A stretch of 42,130 nt of DNA from an uncultured Verrucomicrobiota bacterium (GCA_964520205.1 CAZFOA010000003.1:1-42130); one strand, 5' to 3'; shown: positions 1,757 through 40,074, numbered from the stretch's first letter. Numbers and translations are program-made. The notes: generated by a model from the sequence alone, not told the origin.

Positions 1757-1758
1757 CC

Positions 1759-13150: not shown

Positions 13151-13246
13151 CAGCAGATTCTTACCATCCCACCGGGCGGTCCGTAAATGCAGAACCTTCG
13201 CGGCCGCCGGGGAGTTGATCCGCCAACCTCGATGGAGTTTTCCCGG

Positions 13247-19586: not shown

Positions 19587-20299
19587 AATATCAGAAGATG
19601 CTGCTGGTCGTCGTCGTGGCCGGCCTGATGGCCGGCACGGCGGGTGTCTTGACCTGGCTCCGGTCGAACCAGAAGCTGGGCAAGCCGGGCATTAAGGCGA
19701 CGCCCATTCCCGGCAGTGTGGCCATGACCCTCGAGTTGCCGGCTCAAGTCCTGGATTTCACCTCCACCAATGTGCCGGAGCCCGAATTGGTCCTGGGTTA
19801 TCTGCCCAAGGACACCAGCTTTGTTGAGCGCCTGTACCAAGCGCCGGACGGCATGTTCGTCCAGGCGACGATCATATTGATGGGAGCAGATCGAACCAGC
19901 ATTCACCGGCCGGAAATGTGTTTGTTGGGCAACGGATGGCAGGCCAACGAGAAAACCGTGGTCAACATCCCCATTGGTGGTCCGCATCCGTATCCATTGC
20001 CGGTCATGAAATGGGTCATCACCCGGCAGCAGGATGGCCTGCGCGGGCTGTACGTCTTCTGGTTTGTAGCGGACAACGAAATGGCGACGCACAACGTTCG
20101 GCTCCAAATTGATCTGGTCCGGGACCTTTTGTTCAGGGGGGTATTGCAGCGCTGGGCGTACATGAGTTACTTCGCGGTCTGCGCGCCCGGCCAGGAGGAG
20201 GCCGCTTTTGAACGGGTGAAACAGCTCATCGCCGCTTCCGTGCCCGAATTCCAACTGCCGCCGCAGACCGCCGGGGCGCCCGAAGTCGCGAAACAATAA
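19583..20299 (+). CDS. Exosortase-associated EpsI-family protein
   Basis: Track ORF 19343..20299, trimmed to the ATG at 19583 (MKYQKMLLVVVVAGLMAGTAG, a signal/anchor). EpsI hallmark SIHRPEMCLLGNGW. Translationally coupled to the exosortase gene. Confidence 0.8.
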   Translation: MKYQKMLLVVVVAGLMAGTAGVLTWLRSNQKLGKPGIKATPIPGSVAMTLELPAQVLDFTSTNVPEPELVLGYLPKDTSFVERLYQAPDGMFVQATIILMGADRTSIHRPEMCLLGNGWQANEKTVVNIPIGGPHPYPLPVMKWVITRQQDGLRGLYVFWFVADNEMATHNVRLQIDLVRDLLFRGVLQRWAYMSYFAVCAPGQEEAAFERVKQLIAASVPEFQLPPQTAGAPEVAKQ

Positions 20300-22957: not shown

Positions 22958-24826
22958 ATGCTGAATTCCAAATCATTTCTGGCAGTGGACTTTGGGGCGG
23001 GAAGTCTCAAACTCGCGGAGTTTGAAGTCAACGAAGCCGGGGGGTTGCGTCTGAAACAATACGCAATCAAGTCGCTGGGCGCCGAAGGCGCTCAGGAGTC
23101 CACCCGCGAAGCCACGATTCTCAAGGCGCTCCAGGAGCTGCTGGCCGAGAAGGGCATCAAAGCCCGCGAGGTCAATGTCTGTGCCCCGGGCTTTCACGTG
23201 TTTTCCAAATTCGTCAAGTTGCCGCCGGTGGACGCCGGCAAGGTGACGCAGATCATCCAATACGAGGCTCAGCAGAACGTGCCGTTCCCTTTGCAGGAAG
23301 TGGTTTGGGACTACCAGATCATGGGCTCGACCGCGGGCGGCGAACTGGAAGTGTTGCTCGTGGCCATCAAGGCGGACATTGTCGAAGGCTTGTTTCGGGT
23401 TGCCGACTCGGCCAAGCTTCGATTGCAGTTGGCGGACGTTTCGCCGGCGGCCCTGTGCAACGCGTTCCGCTACAACTATGGCGATCTGGAAGATTGCACC
23501 ATGCTTCTGGACATCGGGGCCAAGACGAGCAATCTCCTCTTTTTCGAGAAGGGCAAGGTGTATTCCCGGAGCATCAACCTGGGCGCCAATTCCATCACCC
23601 AGGATTTCGCCAACGAGGCAAAACTGAAATTCGATGCCGCCGAAAAGACCAAGATCGCGGAAGGTTTTGTGAGTCTGGGCGGCGCGTATGAGGAGCCCGA
23701 GAATCCGCATCAGGCGGCGATTTCCAAAATCGCGCGCCAGTTCATGACCCGCCTCCACATCCAGGTCAATCAGACCATGCAGTTTTATCGCGGGCAGCAG
23801 GGCGGCTCGGCGCCGCAACGCCTCTTCCTTTCCGGCGGCGCTTCCATCATGCCTTATACCGCTCAGTTTTTCGCCGAAAAACTGAATGTCCCGGTCGAAT
23901 ACTTCAACCCGTTCCGCAACGTGCAGATTGATTCGGCGGTCAATCTCGAGGAACTGGCCCGGGTTGCCCATTCCCTGGGCGAGGTGGTCGGCCTGGGCCT
24001 GCGCAACCTCGCGCACTGCCCGGTCGAGTTGAACCTGATCCCGGAAACCACCCGCCGGTGGCAAGTTTTCAACGAGAAGAAACCCTACCTGATTTTCACC
24101 GTGTTTAGCCTCGTGTTAGTCGTGGGCGCGATGGGTTTCCTGTTTCAGAATCTGGCGGATGTCAAGAACAACGAACTCCAAAACAACGTGAACCCGCGAC
24201 TGGCTCCGCTGCAGGCCAGCCAGGCTGAATTCAAGAAAGCTTCCGCGCAATTGCAGGCCGCCCAACAGGATTTGAATCAGTTGACCACCTGGACGGAAAA
24301 TCGCTACTTTTGGGCATCGGTCCTTTCCGAAATGCGCAGCGTTTTTATCAAGACCGAACGCATGGCGCGGGACAAGCTGAAGACGGATACCGGCATCTGG
24401 GTGGAGCAATTCTTGACCGTGGCGCCGCGCGCCTCCTCGGCTCCATCGGTCCCGGGACTTCCCGGCGGGCCCATCCAAACCGCGCCCACTGACCGGGCCC
24501 ATCGGGGCCGCTTCATGGGAGACGCGCCCGCGGCCCCGGCCCCGGCGCCCACGCCAGTTCCCGATGCCGCGCCCATAGCGCCCGCGGGCGGGACTCCCGG
24601 CGGCGGGATCGGGTTCATCACGCTCTTGTGCCGCGCGGTGAACTTGCAGAGCGTCGATGCCGCGGCCAACCAGACCATCATCTACACTCTCGAAAACGAG
24701 TTGAAGGCCGACCCGATGTTTGATCCCAAAGGAACCCAGTTGGCCCCGCAGATCAACACCGATGATGCCTCCGGCACGTTCACCTTCGGGGTGACGGTCG
24801 GGCTGCAGCATCCGATGAAGCTTTAG
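22958..24826 (+). CDS. pilM: PilM-PilN fusion protein (actin-like ATPase-fold PilM, PilN motif, TM anchor, coiled coil) with Pro/Ala-rich linker and C-terminal extra domain
   Basis: 622-aa ORF. Residues 1-355 are PilM/FtsA-like (FLAVDFGAGSLKLAEF, LLDIGAKTSNLLFF, LFLSGGAS). Then comes the PilN N-terminal signature ELNLIPE (nt 24026-24046). This is followed by a TM helix PYLIFTVFSLVLVVGAMGFLF, a coiled coil, the linker APAAPAPAPTPVPDAAPIAPAGG, and a ~70-aa tail. Confidence 0.8.
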   Translation: MLNSKSFLAVDFGAGSLKLAEFEVNEAGGLRLKQYAIKSLGAEGAQESTREATILKALQELLAEKGIKAREVNVCAPGFHVFSKFVKLPPVDAGKVTQIIQYEAQQNVPFPLQEVVWDYQIMGSTAGGELEVLLVAIKADIVEGLFRVADSAKLRLQLADVSPAALCNAFRYNYGDLEDCTMLLDIGAKTSNLLFFEKGKVYSRSINLGANSITQDFANEAKLKFDAAEKTKIAEGFVSLGGAYEEPENPHQAAISKIARQFMTRLHIQVNQTMQFYRGQQGGSAPQRLFLSGGASIMPYTAQFFAEKLNVPVEYFNPFRNVQIDSAVNLEELARVAHSLGEVVGLGLRNLAHCPVELNLIPETTRRWQVFNEKKPYLIFTVFSLVLVVGAMGFLFQNLADVKNNELQNNVNPRLAPLQASQAEFKKASAQLQAAQQDLNQLTTWTENRYFWASVLSEMRSVFIKTERMARDKLKTDTGIWVEQFLTVAPRASSAPSVPGLPGGPIQTAPTDRAHRGRFMGDAPAAPAPAPTPVPDAAPIAPAGGTPGGGIGFITLLCRAVNLQSVDAAANQTIIYTLENELKADPMFDPKGTQLAPQINTDDASGTFTFGVTVGLQHPMKL

Positions 24827-24828
24827 TT

Positions 24829-25728
24829 ATGTCCTGGGTCAAACGAAATCTCTATTTCCTCTTCAGCAGCCTGGTGGCGTTGGTGCTGCTCGGGTTGGCC
24901 GGCTACTATTTCTACTCGAACTGGAGCCTCAACAACAGTAACCTGGAAAAGCTCAACACGGCGTATGGGCTGCTGGATCAGCTGATCAAGAGCAATCCCC
25001 GGGACGAGCATGTTGACAATATCCTGACTGCCCAGCAGCAGTTGACAAACGTGGTCGCGCTGATCGAGAAGGAGAAGAAGTTCTTTTTGCGTGTCGCCCC
25101 GATCCCGGACTCGACCAACGGCGTGATCACGAAGGACGAATTCGCATCCGCGCTGCGCCGCACGATTGACGACTTGGGACACGCCGCGGCCGCCGCCAGT
25201 GTCACCTTGCCGCCGAAATATAACTTCTCATTTCAAGCCCAGCGGGACCTCACCGTGTTCGTCGAAGGCAGCCTGCCGCCTTTGGCCACGCAACTTGGGG
25301 AAATCAAGGCGGTTTGCAATGTGTTGTTCCAGGCCAAAATCAATTCGCTCGACAATCTGCGCCGTGAACGGGTGTCCGCCGACGACGCCCGGGGTCCGCA
25401 ATCGGATTACCTGGAAACAACGTCGGTGACCGGCCCAATGGCCGTGTTGACTCCCTACGAAGTGTCGTTCCATTGCTTCAGCCCCGAGCTGGCGGGAGTG
25501 CTGGCGGGTTTTGCCGGCGATCCGCATGGCTTTATTGTCCAGGCCGTCAACGTCGAATCGGCGGCCCAGGCCCAGGCGGGTTCGGATGTCCTGGGCGGGC
25601 CGGGGTATGCGGGCATGGCGCCCGCGGCGGCGCCGGCCACGAAGGGCGGCCTGCCGGTATTGCTGGATGAAAAACAACTGAAAGTCACACTGGTGTTGCA
25701 AGTGACAAAACTATTGCAGAAGAATTGA
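24829..25728 (+). CDS. N-terminally anchored periplasmic protein in the PilO position; Amuc_1100-like architecture
   Basis: 299-aa ORF starting 2 nt after the pilMN stop. TM anchor LYFLFSSLVALVLLGLAGYYF, then a helical region, an A/P/G-rich linker GGPGYAGMAPAAAPATKGG, and a terminal strand LKVTLVLQVTKLL. The family assignment is from recollection of the Akkermansia protein, not from a search. Confidence 0.6.
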   Translation: MSWVKRNLYFLFSSLVALVLLGLAGYYFYSNWSLNNSNLEKLNTAYGLLDQLIKSNPRDEHVDNILTAQQQLTNVVALIEKEKKFFLRVAPIPDSTNGVITKDEFASALRRTIDDLGHAAAAASVTLPPKYNFSFQAQRDLTVFVEGSLPPLATQLGEIKAVCNVLFQAKINSLDNLRRERVSADDARGPQSDYLETTSVTGPMAVLTPYEVSFHCFSPELAGVLAGFAGDPHGFIVQAVNVESAAQAQAGSDVLGGPGYAGMAPAAAPATKGGLPVLLDEKQLKVTLVLQVTKLLQKN

Positions 25729-25734
25729 CGCGCG

Positions 25735-26526
25735 ATGCAGTTTCTCAAGAAAAACTACGAAAAGGTTTTGCTTGGCCTGGTGCTGTTCGGGCTGGTGGCT
25801 GCGGTGGCTTTCCTGCCGTTCCTGGTCGAAGGCGAAAAGCAACGGCTGACCGAACTGCGCGACGGCATCACCAGCCGGAAGGTTCTTCCCATGGCGCCGC
25901 TGGATATGAAACGGGGCGAGGATGCCCTTGGACAAGTTGCCACGCGCCTGACGCTGGACCTTTCCGGAAACCATAAATTGTTCAACCCCGTCCGCTGGCT
26001 CAAAGGCCCGAACGGCCCCATCAAAATGCCCGCCGGAAGCGAGTTGGAGAAACTCGAAGTCACCCGGATGACGCCATTGTACCTGGTTCTCTCGCTCGAG
26101 TCGGTCAGTGTGTCTGATGCCTCCGGGGCGCGTTATGAGATCGTGGTGGAGCAACAGGCGTCGCCGAGGCAGATCCAGCGTGGCCGGCGCCCCTATTATG
26201 TGTCGATCAACGACAAAAAAGATCTGTTCGCCGTGCGGGAGGCCAAAGGACCGCAGAACAATCCAACGGCGCTGGTCCTGGAATTGAACGACACCGGAGA
26301 AACAGCTTCGATTTCCAAAGGCAATGACTTCAAGCGGGTGGACGGCTACACGGTCGATTTGAGATACGCGCCCGAAAACAAATCCTTCCTCGGCCGCCGC
26401 GCCGGCGACAAAATCAGCGTCGGCGGAGAGGAATATACTATTGCTAACATCACTCAGAACGAAGTAATATTGTCGGCCAGATCGAACGGTAAGAAATATA
26501 CAATCAGATACAACGCCGCACCTTGA
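25735..26526 (+). CDS. N-terminally anchored beta-rich periplasmic protein in the PilP position (hypothetical)
   Basis: 263-aa ORF starting 6 nt after the previous stop. Anchor VLLGLVLFGLVAAVAFLPFLV, with a strand-rich remainder. No named motif recognised. Confidence 0.6.
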   Translation: MQFLKKNYEKVLLGLVLFGLVAAVAFLPFLVEGEKQRLTELRDGITSRKVLPMAPLDMKRGEDALGQVATRLTLDLSGNHKLFNPVRWLKGPNGPIKMPAGSELEKLEVTRMTPLYLVLSLESVSVSDASGARYEIVVEQQASPRQIQRGRRPYYVSINDKKDLFAVREAKGPQNNPTALVLELNDTGETASISKGNDFKRVDGYTVDLRYAPENKSFLGRRAGDKISVGGEEYTIANITQNEVILSARSNGKKYTIRYNAAP

Positions 26527-26563
26527 ACCGTGCCGACGCTTTTTTGTGAACGTCACCGAACCC

Positions 26564-29365
26564 ATGAGCAAAGCAGTTACCACCCCACTCTGTATCCTTC
26601 TGTTGGCCGTCACGGCTCCGCTGTTGTCCGCCCAACCCAGCCCCACTGATGCGGCCGTGCAGGAGGCCGTGCGCCGGCAGGCCGACCGGATCACCCTGCG
26701 CCAGAAGCTGGAAGATGCTTCGGCGGCGGACCAAAGGCGCGATTTGCCGGCCGCCGCCAAACTCTACGACGCCTCCTGGGACCTGGTGGTCGGCATCGGG
26801 CCGGGCATCGAGTCGGAGCGGCAACAGACCGTTGACGGTTTGACCCTGGTCCGAATGGAACTGGCGCGCGCTGCGCTGCACCGCGGCGATCTGCCGGAGG
26901 CAAAAATCCAGGTTGAAGACGTGTTGCGGGTCAATCCCAACGACCCCATCGCGGTTGCATTCGAGCGCGACATTCTCAGGCTGATCGAGGAGCAACGCGG
27001 CCACGCCGCCAGCCTGGAGGTGCAGGAGCAGGTCCCCAATATCGCCAGCAACAAAGTCGCCGCGGCAACGCTCGTTCAGGATGCCAGGGTGTTCTATGAA
27101 CTCCGCCAATTGAATGAAGCCGATGCCAAGCTGAAGGAAGCCTTGAGGTTGGACCCGGCCAGTCAGGCGGCGGCCTATTATGGCAGCCTGGTCGAACAGG
27201 CCCGGTCCCAGCAAGCGATGACCCGGCGCATGATCGATACCGAGAAGAAAATGGTCCAGATCGAGCAGGCCTGGGAAACCCCAATCAAGCGCGAATCGTT
27301 GGCCATGCCCAATCCCATGGCGCGCACCAATCTCGTCTATACCGGCCAGGGACGGCAGGCGATTCTAAGCAAGCTCGACCTCATTCGCATCAACAGCGTT
27401 CTTTTTGACGGACTCCCGCTCAATGAAGTTGTGCGTTACCTGAGCGAGGAAGTCAAGAAACGCGACCCGGAGAAGAGAGGCATTAATTTTCTCATCAGCG
27501 CAAACCCCGAAACCGTTTCCACCACCCCGGTGGCGGCCACAGCCACAGGTACAGGGGCCGCCTTTGCGCCGCAGGCTCCAGTGCGGTTTGGCGCACCGGG
27601 AGGAGCACCCCAAATCGATCCCACCACCGGACTGCCCATTCAGGCTGCGGCGACGACCGAATCCGGGGATATTAATTCCGTCACGGTCACCATCAATCCC
27701 GGCATGACGGATGTTCGTCTGGCCGACGTTTTGGACGCCGTTGTCACAGTGGCCAATCATCCGATCAAATATTCGATTTTGGATTATGCGATCATCTTTT
27801 CCGTGAAAGGGCCGGAAGATCCGCAGCTTCACATCAGAACGTTCAAGGTGGATCCGAACACCTTCTATCAAGGGTTGGAAAGTGTGGGCGGGTTGAATTT
27901 CGGCGGCCTTGTCGGCAACGGGGGTAGCAGCGGTGGCGGTGGCTCCAGCGGCGGCGGCGGTGGTGGCGGCGGCGGTGGCGGCCAGGGCGGTGGCGGTGGG
28001 CAAAGCGGTCAAAACGGTATTTTGACGGTTCCTCGAGTCAACGTATCAGGGGGGTCATCTAGCGGCGGCGGTGGTGGCGGCGGTGGCGGCGGCGGTGGCG
28101 GCGGCGGCGGCCAGAGCGGCTCCGGACTGTCGTTTGTTACCCAAACAAACTCGATGGCGGCAGTGCAGGGCGCGGTCGTTACCTTCTTCCGGGCAGTGGG
28201 TGTGGAATTGGGCGCGCAAGCCGGGAAAAACGTTTTTTGGAATGATCGGGCGGGAACCTTGACCGTGCGTGCCACCTCTCAGGAGTTGGACATTATTGAA
28301 GCCGCCATTCAAACACTCGACATTGCTCCGCCGCAGGTGAACATCAAAGCGAAATTTGTGGAAGTGACCCAGAAAGACAGCCGGGCGCTCGGATTCGACT
28401 GGTATCTGGGAAATTACTTGATGAACAACGGCCAAATCGGGGCGCAGGCAGGCACCGCGCCGAGCTTCGCCGGCGCGCCCAGCGCGGGCAATCCGGAAGG
28501 AACCTTCCCGGGTAGCGCTCTCGCCGGCACCGCCCTTCCGCCGTCAACCACGGACGGGTTGTTGACCAGCGGATTGCGCAATGGCTCTGTGAATAACATC
28601 CCGGCGATCCCGGCCCTCGGCACGATCACCGGAATCCTGACGGACCCCCAGTTCCGGGTGGTGGTTCGTGCTTTGGAGCAACGAGAGAGCGCGGACCTTT
28701 TGAACGACAGCCAGGTGACCACGTTGAGCGGGCGCCAGACACAGATTCAAGTGGTGGACCTGGAAACCATCGTCACCGGCACCAGTGTCAATCAACAGTC
28801 TGGTGGCGGCGGTGCCGTTCCCAGCGGCGGGGCGACGACGCCAGGTACGGCCACCACGGCCATCACCTACACCACTTCCGTGTTTCCACTTGGTCCGACG
28901 CTGGATGTCATTCCTTATGTTTCAGCGGATGGCTACACCATTCAAATGACGATTATCCCGACCCTGGTTGAGTTTATTGGCTACGACAGCGTCGCCGGCC
29001 AGTTCCAAATCCAGGCCCAAAATGGGACCGGCGTCCCATTGACGGCGCAACTGGCGCTGCCGCACTTCCGCACCCGGCAGGTCACCACCAGCGCGATTGT
29101 CTGGGACGGCCAAACCATTGTGCTGGGCGGACTAATCTCGGAAAACGTCGCCAAGTTGAAGGACAAGGTGCCGGTGCTGGGCGACTTGCCGTTTTTGGGA
29201 CGCCTCTTCCGGAGCGAATCGAATATCTCGACCAAGCAGAATCTCGTGATTTTCGTCACTCCCACCATCATTGACCCGGCGGGCAATCGGGTGCATACGG
29301 ATGATGAACTTCCATTTGCGCAGAATACAATTCCGACGCAGAAGCCGCTTTCGCAGAATCCCTAG
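26564..29365 (+). CDS. Secretin (type II/III secretion system / PilQ family) with N-terminal TPR-like region and two poly-Gly/Ser tracts
   Basis: Track ORF 26546 (GTG)..29365. The ATG at 26564 gives the signal peptide MSKAVTTPLCILLLAVTAPLLSAQ. TPR-like helices follow (LHRGDLPEAKIQVEDVLRVNPNDP, YELRQLNEADAKLKEALRLDP). A secretin N-domain (ELDIIEAAIQTLDIAPPQVNIKAKFVEV) is present. The C-terminal secretin core is GRQTQIQVVD ... DKVPVLGDLPFLGRLFRSESNISTKQNLVIFVTPTII. Confidence 0.9.
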   Translation: MSKAVTTPLCILLLAVTAPLLSAQPSPTDAAVQEAVRRQADRITLRQKLEDASAADQRRDLPAAAKLYDASWDLVVGIGPGIESERQQTVDGLTLVRMELARAALHRGDLPEAKIQVEDVLRVNPNDPIAVAFERDILRLIEEQRGHAASLEVQEQVPNIASNKVAAATLVQDARVFYELRQLNEADAKLKEALRLDPASQAAAYYGSLVEQARSQQAMTRRMIDTEKKMVQIEQAWETPIKRESLAMPNPMARTNLVYTGQGRQAILSKLDLIRINSVLFDGLPLNEVVRYLSEEVKKRDPEKRGINFLISANPETVSTTPVAATATGTGAAFAPQAPVRFGAPGGAPQIDPTTGLPIQAAATTESGDINSVTVTINPGMTDVRLADVLDAVVTVANHPIKYSILDYAIIFSVKGPEDPQLHIRTFKVDPNTFYQGLESVGGLNFGGLVGNGGSSGGGGSSGGGGGGGGGGGQGGGGGQSGQNGILTVPRVNVSGGSSSGGGGGGGGGGGGGGGGQSGSGLSFVTQTNSMAAVQGAVVTFFRAVGVELGAQAGKNVFWNDRAGTLTVRATSQELDIIEAAIQTLDIAPPQVNIKAKFVEVTQKDSRALGFDWYLGNYLMNNGQIGAQAGTAPSFAGAPSAGNPEGTFPGSALAGTALPPSTTDGLLTSGLRNGSVNNIPAIPALGTITGILTDPQFRVVVRALEQRESADLLNDSQVTTLSGRQTQIQVVDLETIVTGTSVNQQSGGGGAVPSGGATTPGTATTAITYTTSVFPLGPTLDVIPYVSADGYTIQMTIIPTLVEFIGYDSVAGQFQIQAQNGTGVPLTAQLALPHFRTRQVTTSAIVWDGQTIVLGGLISENVAKLKDKVPVLGDLPFLGRLFRSESNISTKQNLVIFVTPTIIDPAGNRVHTDDELPFAQNTIPTQKPLSQNP
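27920..28126 (+). repeat. Two in-frame GGY/AGC triplet-repeat tracts encoding poly-Gly/Ser linkers inside the secretin gene
   Basis: Tract 1 (27920-28000) encodes GGSSGGGGSSGGGGGGGGGGGQGGGGG. Tract 2 (28049-28126) encodes GGSSSGGGGGGGGGGGGGGGGQSGSG. Both end in a near-identical ...GGCGGTGGCGGCCAG(G/A)GCGG, so together they form a direct repeat about 130 nt apart. Confidence 0.9.
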
Positions 29366-29431
29366 AAGTGGACCAATTTAGTAATAAGTTTGGACAATGT
29401 TCCAGGGCAGGTTAACATTAGAAAACGAATT

Positions 29432-30811
29432 ATGTTATTGTCGTCATTCGCCCGGAAGACGGTGATTTGCTGGTGTCTCGGGTTGGCAAGTCCCGCGGTT
29501 GTATTCGGTCAAACTGATTTCACTCCGTTCGCCGGCGAATATTCCATCGTTGGCAGCCTGCCGGGCGACCAGGTTCATCCTGGCGCTGCCATCGACGCGA
29601 ACGGCGGCTACCTCGTCTGGCAGGATAATTCGGTCAATACCAACGGACTGCGAATCCAGGCGGCGCGGTTGAACAGCAATTTCACCACCCTTTCCAACAT
29701 CGTTGTCAGCGCCGTCGCCAAGGTGAAAACCACCGGCAACCAGGAAAAGCCACAGGTGGCCTTGCTGCAAAACGGGGGCGCGGTCATTGTCTGGCAGGGA
29801 GGCAAACCCGGCCTGCAGCAGATTTATGCGCGCTTTCTCGGAGCCAACGGCGCTTTCCTTGCAAAAACGGATCTCCGGGTCAGCACCCATACCAAAAACA
29901 GCCAAAGCTACCCCCAGGTGGCGACCCTGACCGATGGCAGCGTGGTCATCGTGTGGTCGAGTGACGGACAGGACGGCAGCATGCTTGGGGTTTTCGCCCG
30001 GCAGTTTTCCGCGGCAGGCAAGCCTCTGGGCCTCGAGTTCCAGGTCAACCAGACGAGTCTCTACAACCAACGCACCCCCGCGCTGGCCGCGCTGGCCAAT
30101 GGGAACTTCGTGGTCGCCTGGATTTCCGAATTGCAGCGCAGCGGCGGCAGCGTGGGCAGCGTGGACGTTTACGCGCGTATTTTTAACGGCTTGGGCGCCG
30201 CTGTTACCGGCGAGTTCCCTGTCAATACCAGCATCATCAACATTTGCGCCAACCCCTCGCTGGCGGCTTCGCCCCAGGGTGGCTTCGCGGTGGCCTGGAG
30301 CCAGAACGACAATGCGGTGGTGCCCACGGCTCCGATCCCTTCCGCCTATAATTCATCCGGTATAACAATTCCTTCGACCGCAATTGCCTCGACTTCGCCG
30401 TCCACGAACGGTTGGGATGTGTTCGCGGCGTTCTATGACGCCACCGGCTCCAATACGACCGCTCCGTTCCGAATGAATCAATATACCTACGGAGACCAGT
30501 TTGGACCGAAGATCAGCGCGCTGGGATCCAATTACATGGCGGTCTGGACCAGCCTCAGCCAGCCCGATCCCAATACCGGTGTCGTCGACCACTCCGAAGG
30601 TGTTTTTGGCCAGTTCATCACCGCCGGCGGCGTCCTGGCTTCGGCGAATGATTTGCACGTGAACACCACCACCCTCGGACGACAAGTCCAGCCAGTCGTC
30701 GTTTCCGATGGCGCCAGCCGCTTCCTCGTGGTGTGGTCGTCTTTGGTCACCGCCCCCATTTTCAATTTCGACCTTTTTGCCCAACAATATTCGCAATCCG
30801 GAGGTCAATGA
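29432..30811 (+). CDS. Exported protein built of seven ~55-aa repeats (predicted 7-bladed beta-propeller-like)
   Basis: Track ORF 29390 (TTG)..30811. The ATG at 29432 gives the signal peptide MLLSSFARKTVICWCLGLASPAVVFGQ. The recurring unit has four parts: P-x-V/A-A-x-L, G-G-x-V-V-V-W, [I/V]-[F/Y]-A-[R/Q]-[F/I/Y], and G-x-x-x-x-x-E/D-F/L-x-V-N. It occurs 7 times, e.g. GAVIVWQ..IYARFL, VVIVWSS..VFARQF, FVVAWIS..VYARIF, FLVVWSS..LFAQQY. Confidence 0.75.
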   Translation: MLLSSFARKTVICWCLGLASPAVVFGQTDFTPFAGEYSIVGSLPGDQVHPGAAIDANGGYLVWQDNSVNTNGLRIQAARLNSNFTTLSNIVVSAVAKVKTTGNQEKPQVALLQNGGAVIVWQGGKPGLQQIYARFLGANGAFLAKTDLRVSTHTKNSQSYPQVATLTDGSVVIVWSSDGQDGSMLGVFARQFSAAGKPLGLEFQVNQTSLYNQRTPALAALANGNFVVAWISELQRSGGSVGSVDVYARIFNGLGAAVTGEFPVNTSIINICANPSLAASPQGGFAVAWSQNDNAVVPTAPIPSAYNSSGITIPSTAIASTSPSTNGWDVFAAFYDATGSNTTAPFRMNQYTYGDQFGPKISALGSNYMAVWTSLSQPDPNTGVVDHSEGVFGQFITAGGVLASANDLHVNTTTLGRQVQPVVVSDGASRFLVVWSSLVTAPIFNFDLFAQQYSQSGGQ

Positions 30812-30814
30812 TTT

Positions 30815-32191
30815 ATGCTGCGACTGTTTCAACGAACGTTCCTGGCCCTGGCGATGGCCGGGATGGTTCATTCCGCATCGGCTTTCTCCCTGACGGGTCC
30901 ATTCGCTACTTGGGAAACCGCGGCGCTCGGCTATAGCCCTGGAGGAGTAGGTTTTGATATCGGCGGGCCGATGAATCTCGGCGAGGGATACCGGTGGAAT
31001 GTCAAGACGATGACCTACGGATTCACCAAGTCCTTCCAGGATTACTTCGGACAAAGAGGGATTGACGAGGTCAATAAAGCTTTTGCCATCCTCAATGGCC
31101 TCCCGCCGGTCTCAAGGATGAGCCAGACTCTCTCGGAGTTTCCCCAGGACACTAGAGGTATCAATATGCAGGCATTTTCTTTGGGGTTGTTTGATCTAAA
31201 GACGGAGGCCTTGGGATTGTTGATCAATCAGCTCGGCGTTGCCGATTCGACGCGTTACGTGTGGACGCTGCGGAGTCGCGCAACCCCGGCTGGTGCCACC
31301 AATTATGTGGTGGTCATGCGGAACTTCGATCCGGTCACCTGGAATCCATCGCCATACGTCAACGGAGTGTTATACACTTATACCATCGGGGAGTTCGGAC
31401 CGGTAGTGCGATTTACCGACGCGGTTGAATCCACGGTCGATCCTTTGGCGCTGGGGTTCAATACAGCATCGCACATTGACCTCAACGGTAATATCAACAT
31501 CCCTGCTGGATACTTCCCCGGCGTGTATTACACCGGCCTGACGCGTGACGACGTGGGAGGACTGCGCTACCTTTTGAGCAAGAAGCTGCTCAATGTTGAA
31601 AACCTGCCCACCAACATCATCGGCGGAGCGTCCTCGCCCTGGATGCCGGTCGGTGTATTGGCAACAAACACCATCGTCAGAATCGCCATGCGCCCGGGGG
31701 TTGACAAAATCGCTTTCAAGCAATTGAAATACTACGGATTTTTCCCCGGGTTTACCAACGTTTACACGGACGTTTATGTGGTCAACGGCCACTCTTTTTC
31801 CCAACGAGTCCAGGACGTCCAGATCCTCCAGCCGGACATCGTTTTTACCGCCGGGGACTTCGGCGTGGATGGCAATGGAGGCATACCTTTCCTGACCTCC
31901 AGGACGCCTGCCGCAGCCTGGGCCAATAACAGCAATATCCAAGACAACACGCCGGCGGTCGGCGAAGTCGATGGTCCGGGCGTCGTCCAGCCAACGATTA
32001 TTATCGGATTTTCCAATGTCGGGCCTTACTTAGCGAATAGTTTTCCCGGGTTTATGAATCAATTCAACCCTGCTTCCTCTTTTGGCGGTTGGGCTGCGTT
32101 TGACGGCTCGGCGAATCCGCCGTTCATTTTTCCCAACGGCGCTTCCATACAAGATTTGCAGAACAGCATCTTGAACGGCGGCGGACTCTAG
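30815..32191 (+). CDS. Exported hypothetical protein (no recognisable family)
   Basis: 458-aa ORF whose ATG lies 3 nt after the upstream stop. Signal peptide MLRLFQRTFLALAMAGMVHSASA. Even composition across the whole length and no competing ORF in another frame. Confidence 0.7.
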   Translation: MLRLFQRTFLALAMAGMVHSASAFSLTGPFATWETAALGYSPGGVGFDIGGPMNLGEGYRWNVKTMTYGFTKSFQDYFGQRGIDEVNKAFAILNGLPPVSRMSQTLSEFPQDTRGINMQAFSLGLFDLKTEALGLLINQLGVADSTRYVWTLRSRATPAGATNYVVVMRNFDPVTWNPSPYVNGVLYTYTIGEFGPVVRFTDAVESTVDPLALGFNTASHIDLNGNINIPAGYFPGVYYTGLTRDDVGGLRYLLSKKLLNVENLPTNIIGGASSPWMPVGVLATNTIVRIAMRPGVDKIAFKQLKYYGFFPGFTNVYTDVYVVNGHSFSQRVQDVQILQPDIVFTAGDFGVDGNGGIPFLTSRTPAAAWANNSNIQDNTPAVGEVDGPGVVQPTIIIGFSNVGPYLANSFPGFMNQFNPASSFGGWAAFDGSANPPFIFPNGASIQDLQNSILNGGGL

Positions 32192-32202
32192 GAGCGAATT
32201 TC

Positions 32203-35200
32203 GTGAAGAGAATTATGAAGCGATTGTTACTTTCAGGTGTCCTGAGTCTGGCGCTGTCTCCGTTCGCCGCGCTGTTGGCGCAGTCGACGAACGTCTATAT
32301 CAATTCCGGCTCCGTTAGCTTCGCGATTGATGCGGTTCCGATTGATGCGGTGACGTTCATCAATTCCGGCACCTTTAGCGCCATTAGTCTCCAACCCTAC
32401 GAAACGTTCGATACGCTTAACTTCACCAATAAGGGCACCGGCACCATGAACGGCATTCCCGGTTTTTGGTTCGATGATTCTCCGTCGCGTACCGGCCAGC
32501 GCCAATGGTCGGCGAATTTCTTCAACGACAATAACGGCGTGGTTACGGCAACCAGTTTCGCTGATTTTGGAATATTAGTTACTGGTTTTTCTGTCAACAT
32601 GCAGAGCAGTTATCTCCAGATCTGGGCAACTAATATCGTCAACTACGGAACGTTCAACGTTGGGGCGGGAGGAGTGATTCAGATGACGGGTGACAACGTC
32701 GATCTTAAACAGGGTGTATTTGATGTGACCGCGCTTGCCGGGGTGGGCAGCGTGATTCTGACCGCTACGAACCAATTCTCCCCGGACACGTCCGTCTATG
32801 ACGTCTACTGGGCTGCAGCCAATTTTACACCCTTGCCGCCACCACTCGTGTTGGATACCGCGGCGATCTGGGATGGCACCAACGCCACTGCGCCGTCCAT
32901 CTCCAGTCCGCCCGCAGGGCCGCCTCCCATTCCCATTTTAGGGTTTTCATTCGTCCCGACCTACGCCGATTCCTGGAGTAATTACGTCACCACTGCGGCC
33001 ATCTCGGTCACCAACGTTCCCAATAACAACCCGATGACGGTCACTCTGGTCACCAACATGACCAAGGAGGCGGTGTTTGTGTCCGCCCCGGCTTTCGTTA
33101 CCGTGACATCACGGTTTTCACACCTCGGCATAAGCAATTTCAATGACATCAATGTGTTGCTGTCCATGCCGTTGACCAACTCGATCAACCGGGTGATTGG
33201 CACCAACTACATTTACTTTCAGGATCTGCTGGCGAACCAGGCTGCGGTAGGCTTGGTGCCTAACAGTCTTACACCCGACACATTCCGTCCCACCAATTAC
33301 CTGGTGGACCGACTGCCTCATGCCACGATTTTCGTGCCCACAGTGACGAGCAGGAATGGTATTCTTATCACCAATCCCCCGTCGGGTTTTAGCGGCAAGG
33401 GAGTTCCGGAACCCAACTTTTTCCTCGAATCCGGCAATATCTCTTTCGTTACGCCGTCCAATGTCGTGAGCTCCGACACGGTTCAGCCGAGCACCGTGGT
33501 GAGCGCGGGTGCCTTTGCCGCTTATGCCGCTTTTCTCGACAACGTGGCTTCCCGGCCCCCGCCCGTCGCCGGCGGCACCATCACGAATCTGCCGGGCAGC
33601 ATACGAATTGCCGCGGTGAACCTGGATATGACCGGTGCCAAACTGCGCGCCGAGGGGCAGGTTTCGATCACGGCGGAGAATTTGATTTCGAGCACCAACG
33701 CCTCGATTGATTGTGAAAATCTCAGTTATGAACTCGGTTCCAGCTCCGGTAACTTGGTGGTGCAAAATCTGGCCAGCATCAAGGCGGGACGGCTTCGTGG
33801 GGAGATACGCGCCTGGAGCGCCACTTGGACCAATGCGGCGAATGTGGTGATTCCAATCAATCTCGACACCAATGGCATCCCAGTTCCGCTGACGAACGGG
33901 GTGTCGATGGGATGCTACGCCTTGATCCTCGACGCCTCGGGGCTGCTCAATGCTCTGCAGGTATCCCTCTATAATCTGATCCTGCACAGCACCCATATTA
34001 CTGTGAACGACGACTTGACCGTGATCCAGTCGCTGTTGATCGATGGCCAGACCTTCACGCTCAACGGAGGCATCACGATTCCAGGGTTTTTCCCGCCGGC
34101 GGACCCGATTAATAACGTGTTATTTCCGGGTGTTCCGCTCCAGAATTGGACGGGCACCAACGCGCCGACACTCGCGTTGTTTACGAATAACGGCGCGTTT
34201 TTCATCTATAACGAGGCGCATTTCGGAGATGACCGCCCGCTGCCTTACGCTGTCTTGGTCAACTCTGGAAATATTATAGCCTCCGGCATCAAGGTGAACA
34301 GCACCTACTTCGAGAACGACGGCAATTTGATTGCGCAGCCGGGGACGTTGATCATCAATTGCGGTTCAGGCAAACTGCAGAACAGTACGAATACTTCCGG
34401 TAATTTCGCCAAGTTCACCGCCGGCAGCCTGCAATTCAGCAACAGCGCCGTTCTCGCCGGCGACTCCCTGAGTTTCAGCGTCACCAACCGGTTCACCGAC
34501 GGCGGGTCGTCCAACCTCTTCCAGGCGATGAATGGGATTAATCTCCTGACGAAGCCGCAAACCGGAGATTTGCTGGGCAGCACGTTGCTGAGCATTGCGC
34601 CCAGCACTGTTATTGGCAAGACCGTCACCCACACGTGGGCGGGTGAAGACCGCGGGGCGAACCCGGCCGGTTACTACAACAACGCAGCCGTCGGCACGCT
34701 CACCTTTAATGCCTTCAACGCCAACTCGGTATTTTCCTTTGCCGGCACGGCGACGGCTCCGGGCAGGACCAACGGTCTTTACGTGGATGTGCTCGATCTC
34801 AGCGGGCTGAATTCTACCAATCAACTTCAGATCAACCCCAACCTGGTGATCTATTTCGCCGCCGCAAAAGTCAATTTTACGCCGCCGACGAACAGTTTCG
34901 GGCTGCCACAACAGCCGGAAGAGTTTCTGAACGGCCAATTGGGCGGCCATCTGCGGTGGGTTTCGTCCTTCGCCGGTCCGGGCAGCTCGACGAATGTGGT
35001 GATTGGCGGCCAGACCAACACAGTGAATCGCGCGCTGGCGGGCAGCCATATTACGACCAACCTGCAAACGGCTCCGCTGGTCGTCACAATAAGCGGAAGT
35101 GGAACCATTACTCCCAACAACAACGGCAAATCGCTGCTGCTCGGCCAAACATACGGAATGATCGCCTCGCCGGCATCCGGATCAAAGTTCATTGGCTGGA

Positions 35201-36270
35201 CGATCGGTTCCTCGAACACGACTTCGCCTCAGTTGACGTTCGTGATGCAAAGCAATTTAACTATCGTCGCCACGTTTACGTTCGCTCCCGCCGCCGCCTC
35301 CTTCAGCGGGCTGTTTTATGAGACGAACGGAATCGAGTTCCTGAAGTCGGGGGCCGTCACCCTGACCACGACCAAGGCGGGTAATTACACCGGCAACCTG
35401 CAAATCGGCGCCAAACGCTATCCGTTCAGCGGGCTGTTTAACAGCAGCGGCACGGATACCCGGCCGGTGCCCAACAGCGGAGGTCTCGTGCTGCAATTGC
35501 AGGCGGGTAACGACCAGATCCTCGGCACGGTCAGCAACGCGCTCTGGACCGCCAGCCTCCAGGCCGACCGCGCGGTCTTCAATTCCCGGACGAACAAGGC
35601 AACTGCGTTCGCCGGCAGGTACACCCTCATCTTCCCGGGATCCAGTGACCCGGCCGATACGAACAATCCGCAAGGGGATGGCTTCGGCACCGTGACGGTG
35701 AACACCTCCGGCCAGGTCGCGTTAAGCGGGACGCTCGCCGACGGCACCAAGATTTCACAGACCGCAACGCTTTCCGGAGACGGCTTGTGGCCGCTTTATG
35801 TTCCGCTCTACAGCGGCAAGGGCCAGTTGTTGAGCTGGCAAACTTTCGCGATCACGGTTGACCAGGATATCAGCGGGCTGTTCAGTTGGATCAAGCAGAC
35901 CAACACCGCCGCCAAGCTCTACCCCAATGGCTTCAGCTTTGAGAACACCTCGGTCGGTTCGGCTTACAATCCGCAGCTGGTTCCGGTCACCGGCTTTACC
36001 AACGCCAATGTGCTGTTAACCGGCGGAAACCTGGCCGGACCGATTGCCAATACGGTGACGGTTACCGCCAAGAACAAAGTGATCAATGTCAGCGGGAGCA
36101 AACTGACGCTGACTCTGACGCCGTCGCAGGGTTTGTTCAAAGGCAGCGTGCTCAATGCGAACACCGGCAAGTCCGTCAGTTTCACCGGCGCCCTTTTGCA
36201 GAAACAGCTCACCGGGTCGGGTTATTTCCTCGGCACAAACCAGAGCGGGCATGTCTCCTTCAGCCCGTAA
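32203..36270 (+). CDS. Giant exported protein (1355 aa), beta-helix-like N/T/S/G-rich region plus one InlB-B-repeat-like domain
   Basis: GTG at 32203 (alternative ATG at 32215). Signal peptide MKRLLLSGVLSLALSPFAALLAQS. Long Asn/Thr/Ser/Gly-rich strand-like sequence. Segment 35071-35283 (VVTISGSGTITPNNNGKSLLLGQTYGMIASPASGSKFIGWTIGS...LTIVATFT) fits the divergent InlB B-repeat pattern. No C-terminal sorting signal. Confidence 0.8.
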   Translation: MKRIMKRLLLSGVLSLALSPFAALLAQSTNVYINSGSVSFAIDAVPIDAVTFINSGTFSAISLQPYETFDTLNFTNKGTGTMNGIPGFWFDDSPSRTGQRQWSANFFNDNNGVVTATSFADFGILVTGFSVNMQSSYLQIWATNIVNYGTFNVGAGGVIQMTGDNVDLKQGVFDVTALAGVGSVILTATNQFSPDTSVYDVYWAAANFTPLPPPLVLDTAAIWDGTNATAPSISSPPAGPPPIPILGFSFVPTYADSWSNYVTTAAISVTNVPNNNPMTVTLVTNMTKEAVFVSAPAFVTVTSRFSHLGISNFNDINVLLSMPLTNSINRVIGTNYIYFQDLLANQAAVGLVPNSLTPDTFRPTNYLVDRLPHATIFVPTVTSRNGILITNPPSGFSGKGVPEPNFFLESGNISFVTPSNVVSSDTVQPSTVVSAGAFAAYAAFLDNVASRPPPVAGGTITNLPGSIRIAAVNLDMTGAKLRAEGQVSITAENLISSTNASIDCENLSYELGSSSGNLVVQNLASIKAGRLRGEIRAWSATWTNAANVVIPINLDTNGIPVPLTNGVSMGCYALILDASGLLNALQVSLYNLILHSTHITVNDDLTVIQSLLIDGQTFTLNGGITIPGFFPPADPINNVLFPGVPLQNWTGTNAPTLALFTNNGAFFIYNEAHFGDDRPLPYAVLVNSGNIIASGIKVNSTYFENDGNLIAQPGTLIINCGSGKLQNSTNTSGNFAKFTAGSLQFSNSAVLAGDSLSFSVTNRFTDGGSSNLFQAMNGINLLTKPQTGDLLGSTLLSIAPSTVIGKTVTHTWAGEDRGANPAGYYNNAAVGTLTFNAFNANSVFSFAGTATAPGRTNGLYVDVLDLSGLNSTNQLQINPNLVIYFAAAKVNFTPPTNSFGLPQQPEEFLNGQLGGHLRWVSSFAGPGSSTNVVIGGQTNTVNRALAGSHITTNLQTAPLVVTISGSGTITPNNNGKSLLLGQTYGMIASPASGSKFIGWTIGSSNTTSPQLTFVMQSNLTIVATFTFAPAAASFSGLFYETNGIEFLKSGAVTLTTTKAGNYTGNLQIGAKRYPFSGLFNSSGTDTRPVPNSGGLVLQLQAGNDQILGTVSNALWTASLQADRAVFNSRTNKATAFAGRYTLIFPGSSDPADTNNPQGDGFGTVTVNTSGQVALSGTLADGTKISQTATLSGDGLWPLYVPLYSGKGQLLSWQTFAITVDQDISGLFSWIKQTNTAAKLYPNGFSFENTSVGSAYNPQLVPVTGFTNANVLLTGGNLAGPIANTVTVTAKNKVINVSGSKLTLTLTPSQGLFKGSVLNANTGKSVSFTGALLQKQLTGSGYFLGTNQSGHVSFSP

Positions 36271-39548: not shown

Positions 39549-39844
39549 GAACCAAACCCAATTCAGAAGTACGCTACCGACTCAAGAGCCGGCCGCGCCC
39601 TGGCAGATTAAGGAAGGCCTTTTTTGCCTTCGCCAAGAGGGTGAAGGCGAGAGGGAATACAGAATAACGATTTTGGATATCTGTATTTGCATGCTTTCGA
39701 TTGAGCACGGGATATACCAAACCCACATACCCTGCGCCTTGAGAATTTGCGCTCGGTGACCCCGGTGTCTGAAGCGCGATGGAGCCTCGCAATCCCCTCT
39801 TTGTGCCGAAAGATCCTTGGCATCCGAAATCCGATGTCGATAAA

Positions 39845-40019
39845 GCGGATCAGGGTCCCGCCGTCCGGTTGCCCGGCCACTGGAATTTCAGTGTCTCGTT
39901 TCGGACCGGCACTGTCCGGAATTGTGACTGGACGGTTGGCGGCCATTCGGGACACGGGAACCGCCTGACGAGTGTAGCGCAGGCGTCCTTGCCCCCGAGT
40001 CCACCGGGCGTCCCGCCGG
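39845..40019. repeat. Possible diverged copy D of the two-box intergenic repeat
   Basis: GCGGATCAGGGTCCCGCCGTCCGG (39845-39868) resembles box 1. CCACTGGAATTTCAG resembles the copy A centre CAACTGTGGAAATTTCAC. GGGCGTCCCGCCGG (40006-40019) resembles box 2. The matches are short in GC-rich DNA, hence the low confidence. Confidence 0.35.
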
Positions 40020-40074
40020 GGGTTCGTCCTGGCGGCGAGACGCCGCCACAACTCGCCGCCGGAACGGCCGCGCC

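Follow-up and report, generated by a model that had tools for sequence, protein, structure and literature searches.

A run of seven genes on a bacterial contig raises the question of which machine its secretin belongs to, and of what three large exported proteins encoded directly behind that secretin have to do with it. The window analysed here is the entire contig, 42,130 bp in length. In the original prediction, the genes were read as a single orphan secretin operon: a PilM-PilN fusion, two anchored proteins and a TPR-secretin, followed by three exported proteins, with no pilin, ATPase or platform gene. We refer to the seven plus-strand ORFs as P1 to P7, from 5' to 3'. P1-P4 are a known kind of module, and the point of interest is the P5-P7 triad.

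Gene layout and the Akkermansia-like proteins P1-P4

All seven ORFs were found on the plus strand at the predicted positions (Table 1), with successive gaps of 2, 6, 37, 66, 3, and 11 nt. Upstream of P1, an NAD-dependent epimerase gene ends at 22769, leaving 188 nt between the two; the remaining ORFs in the window are EPS/exosortase, NAD synthase, CoaE, GlgB, and Fe-S genes. Almost all related genomes examined repeat the order P1-P7, which far exceeds chance.

Table 1. Features of the P1-P7 cluster, in coordinates of the window.
Feature	Position	Strand	Description
P1	22958-24826	+	622 aa; Amuc_1101-family 'PilM-PilN-like fusion' (putative)
P1 PilM actin-like domain, cytoplasmic	aa 10-350, nt 22985-24007	+	PF11104 (PilM_2)
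P1 transmembrane segment	aa 375-400, nt 24080-24157	+	hydropathy
P2	24829-25728	+	299 aa; Amuc_1100 family, N-terminal anchor, PilO position
P3	25735-26526	+	263 aa; N-terminal anchor, Amuc_1099/PilP position; no named family
P4	26564 (alternative GTG start 26546)-29365	+	933 aa; Sec-signal TPR-secretin
P4 N-terminal TPRs	about nt 26849-27181; TPR_2/TPR_19 at aa 102-212	+	Pfam
P4 two Gly-rich linkers	nt 27920-28126	+	
P4 Secretin_N	nt 28217-28336	+	Pfam
P4 secretin domain	nt 28670-29275	+	PF00263, E 8.3e-31
P4-P5 joint	29366-29431	.	66-nt gap between the sub-blocks
P5	29432 (alternative TTG start 29390)-30811	+	459 aa; Sec-signal beta-propeller (predicted)
P6	30815-32191	+	458 aa; Sec-signal, unnamed family
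P7	32203 (alternative ATG start 32218)-36270	+	1355 aa; Sec-signal, conserved core and variable end
P7 conserved core	aa 1-950, nt 32203-35052	+	tblastn over 64 orthologues
P7 InlB B-repeat	aa 961-1026, nt 35083-35280	+	PF18998, E 3.2e-09

P1 matched PilM_2 (PF11104) with an E-value of 2.3e-39 in the domain search, and scored 145.8 bits with the TIGR01175 pilM model, above the cut-off of 133 by which PilM of type IVa pili is recognised. Its match to the Amuc_1101 family model NF045709 (E 1.5e-148, model positions 1-463 of 608) reached 496 bits, under the equivalog cut-off of 650, which makes P1 a member of this family but not an equivalog. Past its membrane span, P1 continues as a coiled-coil/periplasmic tail in which no Pfam or NCBIfam match to PilN was found at E<=0.1. 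The PilM half of the predicted fusion therefore stands, while the PilN half is a matter of topology.

For P2, the Amuc_1100 family model NF038287 gave 47.6 bits (E 1.5e-12; equivalog cut-off 180), and both P2 and its orthologues have a precomputed Pfam match to PF28028 (Amuc_1100). A sequence search of the PDB returned no match to P2, even with a 45-sequence profile and with the Amuc_1100 chains included. P3 had no match in Pfam, NCBIfam, or the PDB; all related loci that extend that far carry an orthologue of it, and its position, 263-aa size and N-terminal anchor agree with an Amuc_1099-like protein. According to hydropathy, each of the two proteins has a single hydrophobic segment (aa 6-29 in P2, aa 8-34 in P3). 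Since PilO and PilP also had no Pfam or NCBIfam match in P2 and P3 at E<=0.1, the PilN, PilO, and PilP assignments for the P1 tail, P2, and P3 are made by position and topology only.

In P4, an N0-like region lies between the TPRs and the Gly-rich linkers. The Amuc_1098 family model NF042912 scored 338 bits (E 1.2e-100; equivalog cut-off 750). Among the secretin-subfamily models, the highest score came from gspD (TIGR02517; 158 bits, cut-off 351), with the PilQ model TIGR02515 at 113 bits (cut-off 284), and the GspD, MshL, and PilQ models all stayed under their cut-offs. In the GTDB species representatives, at least 576 relatives of P4 were found.

The order of a PilM-like protein, an Amuc_1100-like protein, a small anchored protein and a TPR-secretin is shared with Akkermansia muciniphila, in which the five-gene cluster Amuc_1098-1102 has been described (PMC5332112) and in which Amuc_1098 has the same architecture as P4, with an N-terminal TPR and a C-terminal secretin (PMC4960237). 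The predicted likeness to Amuc_1101-1100-1099-1098 is thus borne out, by the Amuc_1101, Amuc_1100, and Amuc_1098 NCBIfam models together with PF28028. The scores of P1, P2, and P4, all under the equivalog cut-offs, point to distant relatives of the Akkermansia proteins in another order. Judged by position only, no Amuc_1102 counterpart was found upstream of P1, where the epimerase gene lies instead, and the Akkermansia literature describes a five-gene cluster with no mention of a downstream triad. The locus is the counterpart, in soil Verrucomicrobia (Limisphaerales), of the 'pili' cluster of Akkermansia that contains Amuc_1100.

The exported triad and its joint with the secretin genes

The Sec signals predicted for the three proteins behind the secretin were recovered as N-terminal signal-peptide-like sequences in all of them, with no other hydrophobic segment. 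P5 belongs to no family in Pfam or NCBIfam and carries a recurring ...VVW... blade motif. Its AF2 model (pLDDT 87.6, pTM 0.86) retrieved propellers in Foldseek (CylK at 2e-13, the lectin CV39L, and sialidases), which makes P5 a predicted beta-propeller; PilY1 was absent from its top 50 matches. P6 has a conserved mature N-terminus (FSLLGP, preceded by A) and was modelled with similar scores (pLDDT 88.5, pTM 0.88). This model had no fold match in the PDB or BFVD (best E 0.57 in the PDB) and the sequence no match in Pfam or NCBIfam, and the P6 family comprises 1605 representative clusters at E<=1e-3. P7 had no sequence match in the PDB, and its sole domain match, the InlB B-repeat, sits in a lineage-variable C-terminal part: in tblastn over 64 orthologues, coverage was 70-95% along aa 1-950 but fell to about 20% past this core. 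Orthologues range from 944 to 1484 aa for P7 and from 430 to 850 aa for P5, the latter also with variable C-terminal modules. The domain search showed no LysM, AMIN, or pilin-like features in P5-P7. Lineage-variable C-terminal modules of this kind are typical of surface or extracellular proteins, and P5-P7 are probably located there.

We then considered how firmly the triad is tied to the secretin, using a secretin-anchored set of 68 species-level relatives from GTDB. P5-P7 were found downstream of the secretin in 67 of these 68 loci. In P6-anchored metagenome loci, the secretin was upstream in 19/19, P5 was in place in 52/53 and P7 in 53/54, and the same gene context was seen in four other orthologue look-ups. 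The pairing of the secretin with the three downstream genes, as originally predicted, is therefore conserved in relatives. All sampled relatives belong to one order, Limisphaerales, because of which inherited synteny is not fully separable from functional linkage.

Within this conserved arrangement, the P4-P5 junction stands out. Its gap has a median of 174 nt across relatives (IQR 77-1088 nt), compared with medians of 1-19 nt for the junctions inside P1-P4 and P5-P7 (10 nt for P5-P6 and 19 nt for P6-P7). A 5'-3' exonuclease gene lies inside it in 25 of the 68 genomes, from several deep clades. In the window, the 66-nt gap has a G+C content of 35%, against a window average of about 59%. Two weak sigma-70-like matches occur in this gap, in a scan that as a whole was not above chance. 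The cluster thus falls into the sub-blocks P1-P4 and P5-P7, each tightly coupled within itself, with a soft joint between them. The close spacing seen by the original prediction holds in this contig, but the looseness of the joint across relatives weakens its reading of the seven genes as one operon.

A soft joint would also be expected if the two sub-blocks were neighbours by descent only, with P5-P7 forming an independent envelope or extracellular operon that has its own promoter and does not work with the secretin, comparable to the aroK-aroB genes behind pilQ in many Proteobacteria. In line with this, the junction is AT-rich as well as loose, about a third of the genomes have a housekeeping exonuclease gene within it, CoaE and the epimerase are recurrent neighbours too, and every sampled genome comes from the one order. 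Separations also occur both ways: one locus (L049) has the secretin, the exonuclease and CoaE with the triad missing, and another (L140) has P5-P6 after ABC-2-like permease ORFs without a secretin. However, the adjacency of P4 and P5-P7 is kept in 98-100% of loci, as opposed to 25-40% for the flanking housekeeping genes (epimerase upstream in 24/60 and CoaE downstream in 13/53 of the secretin-anchored loci), and this down to 45% secretin identity and, for the P6-anchored context, 35% P6 identity. Moreover, apart from L140, the 80 P6-anchored loci yielded no second copy of the triad lacking a secretin. We therefore regard neighbourhood by descent alone as possible, but on the unlikely side.

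A probable filament secretin module with putative clients

We favour, with moderate confidence, the view that an ordinary secretin module of a type IV filament is combined at this locus with a conserved triad of clients or partners, the remainder of the machine being encoded elsewhere. P1-P4 (module A) would be the Verrucomicrobial equivalent of PilM/N/O/P/Q, in which P1 would provide a cytoplasmic PilM domain and, fused to it across a single membrane span, a periplasmic tail, P2 and P3 would be two bitopic inner-membrane partners, and P4 the outer-membrane secretin with a built-in pilotin-like TPR N-terminus. This module would build the envelope-spanning alignment complex and the exit channel for a type IV filament, which would be a pilus or a pseudopilus like that of a T2SS. 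The ATPase and platform protein of the machine would be encoded elsewhere, as in model organisms, along with its prepilin peptidase and its pilins. In P5-P7 (module B), three Sec-exported proteins would be made from translationally coupled genes that are kept directly downstream of module A throughout Limisphaerales. We infer that P5-P7 are most likely a client of the machine, exported or displayed by the secretin in T2SS style; alternatively, they may accompany the filament as a non-pilin partner similar to PilY1. P1-P4 and P5-P7 would then presumably co-operate.

In model type IVa pilus organisms, the pilMNOPQ operon stands apart from pilA, pilBCD, and pilT. The pilMNOPQ operons of Pseudomonas aeruginosa, Myxococcus xanthus, and Thermus thermophilus have in common with P1-P4 that PilM, bitopic inner-membrane proteins and a secretin are encoded in a stand-alone operon without ATPase, platform, or pilin genes. 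Unlike in these operons, PilM is fused to a membrane partner in P1 and the TPR element to the secretin in P4, where it would stand in for PilF/PilW/Tgl, which are separate TPR pilotins. Other differences are that PilN, PilO, and PilP are unrecognisable by sequence in P1-P3, that P4 falls far short of the PilQ cut-off, and that three exported proteins follow the secretin in place of aroK/aroB.

Substrate genes adjoin the machine in T2SS loci such as Klebsiella, with pulA by pulC-O, and E. coli, with sslE/yghJ by gspC-M; large Sec-dependent proteins beside such a machine would be cargo, a putative role for P5-P7. P1 resembles T2SS GspL in its overall layout, in which a single membrane span separates a cytoplasmic actin-like domain from a periplasmic one, and GspD is the best-scoring secretin subfamily for P4. 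In contrast to a T2SS, neither the cluster nor the window contains GspE/F/G-K genes, P1 matches PilM_2 with no Pfam match to GspL or GspM, and P4 remains under the GspD cut-off with one recognisable Secretin_N rather than N0-N3. PilY1/PilC-type proteins are large Sec-signal non-pilins with a beta-propeller that travel with the type IV pilus through the secretin. P5-P7 are likewise large, carry a Sec signal and lack a pilin N-terminus, and P5 has the predicted propeller, but PilY1 genes sit with minor pilin genes rather than after pilQ, and P5-P7 are three separate proteins.

We also considered that the Amuc_1098-type secretin module of Verrucomicrobia might be mainly a dedicated export or display system instead of a pilus machine, with P5-P7 as its conserved clients in Limisphaerales. 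These would make up a new heteromeric surface structure, one component of which would have a fold not represented in the PDB; this we consider rather doubtful. It is still less probable that P5-P7 are accessories of the machine, such as a TsaP- or PilY1/minor-pilin-like ring, plug or priming complex in the periplasm or outer membrane, and not cargo. The synteny of secretin and triad counts equally for this and for a client role, and the coupled, stoichiometric-looking spacing of P5-P7 and the predicted propeller of P5 would suit it, the C-terminal domain of PilY1 being a propeller as well. On the other hand, PilY1 was not among the top Foldseek matches of P5, the highly variable C-terminal modules are more in keeping with exposed proteins than with a fixed component of a machine, and LysM, AMIN, and pilin-like features were lacking.

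Motor, platform, and pilin genes

A filament secretin module with clients would need its motor from elsewhere in the genome. The ORF survey and motif scans agreed that the 42-kb window holds no ATPase, platform, peptidase, or pilin gene, as had been predicted: neither a PilB/GspE Walker A motif nor a class-III prepilin motif was found in it. Since the window is the whole contig, it is uninformative on what the genome encodes outside it. A scan of 170 related loci (2.5 Mb), reaching 10 kb from the cluster, likewise gave no PilB/GspE-type motif, but these flanks contained eight class-III-signal prepilin ORFs (GFTLIELLVVIAIIAILA...), one of which, in locus L040, lies between the exonuclease gene and P5. 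Such genes near the relatives' clusters imply that type IV filament subunits are made, and that the peptidase and assembly machinery would therefore be encoded elsewhere. PilM is a cytoplasmic actin-like protein with a known role in coupling to the PilB/PilC motor, and by analogy pilBCD probably lie elsewhere in this genome. With the other parts of the machine encoded elsewhere, P1-P4 would not be an orphan system, and we do not retain that term. A self-contained orphan secretin, exporting or displaying P5-P7 without pilin, ATPase, or platform through an undescribed energising logic, would agree with the missing genes in the window and the missing motif around related loci, yet it is very improbable given that such absence is normal for pilMNOPQ operons, that PilM couples to a motor, that related genomes encode class-III prepilins, and that the rest of this genome lies outside the contig.

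Among the effector loci of a candidate therapeutic bacterium, Amuc_1100 and its cluster have received some of the closest study, and in the papers cited here pilus formation by the cluster is a prediction and not a demonstrated function (PMC4960237, PMC5332112). If the link between the two modules were only inherited synteny, the locus would be an ordinary pilMNOPQ-like operon and nothing more; if the secretin module were indeed an export or display system, the 'pili-like' Amuc_1100 cluster of Akkermansia would need a new understanding. P5-P7 define three sizeable 'dark' protein families, of which the P6 family alone numbers ~1600 representative clusters, lacks a fold match in the PDB and has a strong genomic context. 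In the sister order Limisphaerales, the module is locked to these three uncharacterised exported proteins, which provides a concrete, testable handle on the substrate or partner of the machine.

Layout of the gene cluster and its surroundings

The seven plus-strand ORFs, P1 to P7, that had been predicted from the DNA (see the table) were confirmed by an ORF check and agree with the genes called independently on an ENA contig of essentially identical sequence; according to the protein searches, the 42,130 bp of the window form one complete contig. The gaps from P1 to P7 are 2, 6, 37, 66, 3 and 11 nt, a tight spacing that the original prediction read as one ~13.3-kb operon. The spacing in relatives weakens that reading: there, the junction between the secretin gene P4 and P5 was loose (median gap 174 nt, IQR 77-1088), compared with medians of 1 nt for P1-P2, 4 nt for P2-P3, 43 nt for P3-P4, 10 nt for P5-P6 and 19 nt for P6-P7. 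The P4-P5 junction of 25 out of 68 genomes even encloses a gene for a 5'-3' exonuclease (Pfam 5_3_exonuc_N; FEN/Pol I N-terminal type), on the same strand as the cluster (e.g. 12942-13883 of related locus L049, 7420-8322 of L085, and 2772-3683 of L040). The exonuclease-bearing genomes were scattered across several deep branches of the secretin tree, with none in the window's clade. In the window itself, the junction has a G+C content of 35% (vs ~59% overall) and holds two weak promoter-like matches, from a scan that as a whole was not above chance; promoter and terminator counts over 22.5-37.4 kb equalled the shuffled expectation and no transcription units could be called. The cluster is made up of two sub-blocks, P1-P4 and P5-P7. 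One 13.3-kb transcript is possible, and an internal start ahead of P5 is equally plausible.

Positions of the cluster genes and of upstream features in the window
Feature	Position	Strand	Remark
Exopolysaccharide-type cluster	194-22769		directly upstream of P1
XrtA-like exosortase	18615-19586		in the upstream cluster
EpsI-like	within 19343-20299		in the upstream cluster
P1	22958-24826	+	ORF
P2	24829-25728	+	ORF
P3	25735-26526	+	ORF
P4	26564-29365	+	ORF; alternative GTG start at 26546
P5	29432-30811	+	ORF
P6	30815-32191	+	ORF
P7	32203-36270	+	ORF

The upstream exopolysaccharide-type cluster contains genes for MBOAT, GT4/GT2/GT9 glycosyltransferases, a Wzy_C/O-antigen ligase-like protein, WecG, the XrtA-like exosortase with EpsI, a Bac_transf priming transferase and epimerases, plus NAD synthase. 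Its stretch from exosortase to epimerase, upstream of the PilM gene, recurs in only part of the relatives. Downstream of P7 are genes for CoaE, GlgB, an HscB-like and an IscA-like protein. Neither Pfam nor NCBIfam gave a family for ORF 1621-3003 (+), which overlaps the last part of the MBOAT gene; it may be only a shadow ORF, or else belong to the exopolysaccharide cluster as a membrane protein. Also without a Pfam or NCBIfam family are ORFs 39608-40147 (-) and 41169-41960 (-; 263 aa), the latter being a called gene on the ENA contig as well. Rfam and tRNA scans of the window were empty.

P1-P4: a predicted alignment complex with a secretin

In both composition and topology, P1-P4 match the alignment complex of a type IV filament together with a secretin. 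P1 has a complete PilM domain (PF11104, 2.3e-39), scored 145.8 bits against TIGR01175 (cut-off 133), and matched the NCBIfam model 'Amuc_1101 family PilM-like pilus complex protein' at 1.5e-148. Beyond the PilM domain, a single hydrophobic stretch (aa 375-400) leads into a ~220-aa tail; PilM is here fused to its own membrane partner, which resembles the arrangement in GspL of type II secretion. P2, with an anchor at its N-terminus, matched the 'Amuc_1100 family' at 1.5e-12 (Pfam PF28028 was also recorded), and the anchored P3 (263 aa) matched no family. P4 consists of a Sec signal, TPRs, Secretin_N and the secretin domain, so that a TPR (pilotin-like) element is fused to the secretin, and it matched 'Amuc_1098 family type IV pilus outer membrane protein' at 1.2e-100. 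Between an N0-like region and Secretin_N, aa 453-521 of P4 (27920-28126) hold two long low-complexity linkers rich in Gly, Ser and Gln, a feature that also shows in the consensus of 16 homologues.

The family-model matches of P1, P2 and P4 confirm the suspected resemblance to Amuc_1101-1100-1099-1098 of Akkermansia muciniphila, in which P3 takes the position of Amuc_1099. Since all Amuc-family scores were under the NCBI equivalog cut-offs, these three proteins are distant relatives and not orthologue-grade. The Akkermansia secretin has the same TPR and secretin layout, described as 'unique but conserved' in Verrucomicrobia (PMC4960237). The Akkermansia 'type IV pili' cluster is given as five genes, Amuc_1098-1102 (PMC5332112, PMC6828834), whereas here an epimerase gene and not a counterpart of Amuc_1102 precedes P1. 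P1-P4 is a distant member of this Akkermansia-type PilM/Amuc_1100/secretin cluster, itself a pilMNOPQ variant. PDB sequence searches with P2 and P3, both singly and as profiles of 45-46 sequences, gave nothing usable, so that these two proteins are only putatively PilO/PilP-like.

The exported triad P5-P7

As predicted, the three proteins encoded downstream of the secretin are of the Sec-signal type without a sorting tail: each starts with a signal-peptide-like sequence and has no later hydrophobic segments. PEP-CTERM sorting, considered in view of the upstream exosortase, was rejected since the C-termini have no PEP-CTERM tail; lipoprotein and autotransporter anchoring were rejected as well, as neither a lipobox nor a beta-barrel signature is present.

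The families of P5, P6 and P7 are unnamed, and one of them is without a PDB fold match. The P5 model was a confident beta-propeller (pLDDT 87.6), with the CylK propeller domain (2e-13), a bacterial lectin and sialidases as best PDB fold matches; all are propellers, and these matches are informative at the fold level only. For P6 the AlphaFold model was also confident (pLDDT 88.5, pTM 0.88), and Foldseek searches of PDB and BFVD returned no significant fold match, nor did Pfam and NCBIfam searches return a named family. The P6 family comprises 1605 representative clusters at E<=1e-3, with a nearly invariant mature N-terminus, A|FSLLGP. MMP-like Foldseek matches of P6 over 35-40 residues (E>1) were rejected as noise, and the protein has no HExxH motif. 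P7 has a conserved core of ~950 aa and a C-terminal part of 400 aa (InlB B-repeat plus more) that is present in only ~20% of orthologues; a PDB sequence search gave nothing usable.

Orthologue lengths vary through C-terminal add-ons, with 429-851 aa for P5, 450-1112 aa for P6, and 944-1484 aa for P7 (leaving out four truncated orthologue calls). Pfam searches of nine long P5-P7 orthologues returned InlB B-repeats and one sub-threshold GH43 match, and nothing else. C-termini that vary by modules in this way are characteristic of proteins that are exposed or extracellular, as P5-P7 would then probably be. Many triad orthologues end in an FYRV motif that is absent from P5, P6 and P7 of the window. 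Long P5 and short P7 orthologues have the C-terminal motif ...W...L......FYRV..LR/P in common (e.g. L056 12795-14300, L005 16952-19927 and L021 18000-21011), and this ending could correspond to a shared terminal domain or a sorting element.

Synteny and possible roles of the triad

A secretin profile scan over one genome per GTDB species found at least 576 relatives, of which the best 80 were used (45-63% identity; Verrucomicrobia subdivision 3 / Limisphaerales). A second survey searched metagenome contigs with a P6 profile and reached loci with as little as 35% P6 identity. Both surveys cover the 80 closest loci each, and all relatives are from one order, Limisphaerales. Among the best 80 secretin loci, 68 had more than 2.8 kb of sequence past the secretin, and 67 of these carried P5, with P6 and P7 behind it in unchanged order. 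Conversely, all 19 P6-anchored loci that extended far enough upstream had the secretin, while P5 was present in 52/53 and P7 in 53/54; other contig look-ups of P6 homologues gave the same context. The predicted synteny of the three genes with the secretin therefore holds. The flanks were less stable, with the epimerase upstream in 24/60 and CoaE downstream in 13/53 loci of the secretin survey. The literature searched did not mention attachment of the triad across the order.

P5-P7 adjoin the secretin almost without exception, far more often than the neighbouring housekeeping genes do; they are of the Sec-exported type, show no other recognisable sorting signal, and have outer modules that vary. 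Taken together, this makes it most likely, if tentatively so, that P5-P7 are clients of the secretin machine. The secretin would then serve for their secretion or display, or they would accompany the filament in the manner of PilY1. The main rival, which we consider rather unlikely, is that P5-P7 and the secretin share inherited synteny without functional coupling. It is favored by the loose P4-P5 junction, the exonuclease gene embedded there, and two exceptions; the strength of the secretin-triad adjacency relative to the housekeeping neighbors argues against it. One exception, L049 (10001-14464), is the sole one of the 68 loci that lacks the triad: behind the secretin come the exonuclease gene, CoaE, which overlaps it, and a divergent CCA-adding-enzyme-like ORF, and this layout could reflect loss of P5-P7 or the ancestral state. 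The other, the one clear P6-anchored exception, is L140 (1-7602), where P5-P6 have no upstream secretin and P5 is preceded by two paralogous polytopic ABC-2-like permease ORFs and a 740-nt non-coding gap.

The module had also been called an orphan. Genes for PilB/GspE, PilC/GspF, PilD or a class-III-signal pilin are indeed absent from the 42-kb window, and the ATPase motif G.TGSGK[ST]T was absent across 170 related loci (2.5 Mb), but the window alone cannot imply orphan status. In model type IVa pilus organisms, pilMNOPQ forms an operon apart from pilA/pilBCD, pilT/U and minor pilins. Moreover, eight ORFs in the same 170 loci begin like a textbook prepilin (GFTLIELLVVIAIIAILA...). One of these, L040 3680-4510 (GFTLIELLVVIAIIAILAG..., with an H-X9-DG-like region at its end), follows the exonuclease gene and precedes P5, and the other seven are in the flanks of L029, L044, L056, L061 and L097, including a GspG/PilA-like one in L097. 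It follows that these bacteria produce subunits of type IV filaments, and this requires a prepilin peptidase, an assembly ATPase and a platform. We infer that pilBCD-type machinery is encoded elsewhere in the genome, and P1-P4 would work with the ATPase, platform, peptidase and pilins encoded there; a self-contained machine without ATPase is very improbable.

If the triad is the client of the secretin, this would bear on the function of the much-studied Amuc_1100 machine too, and interest in the cluster would rise sharply.
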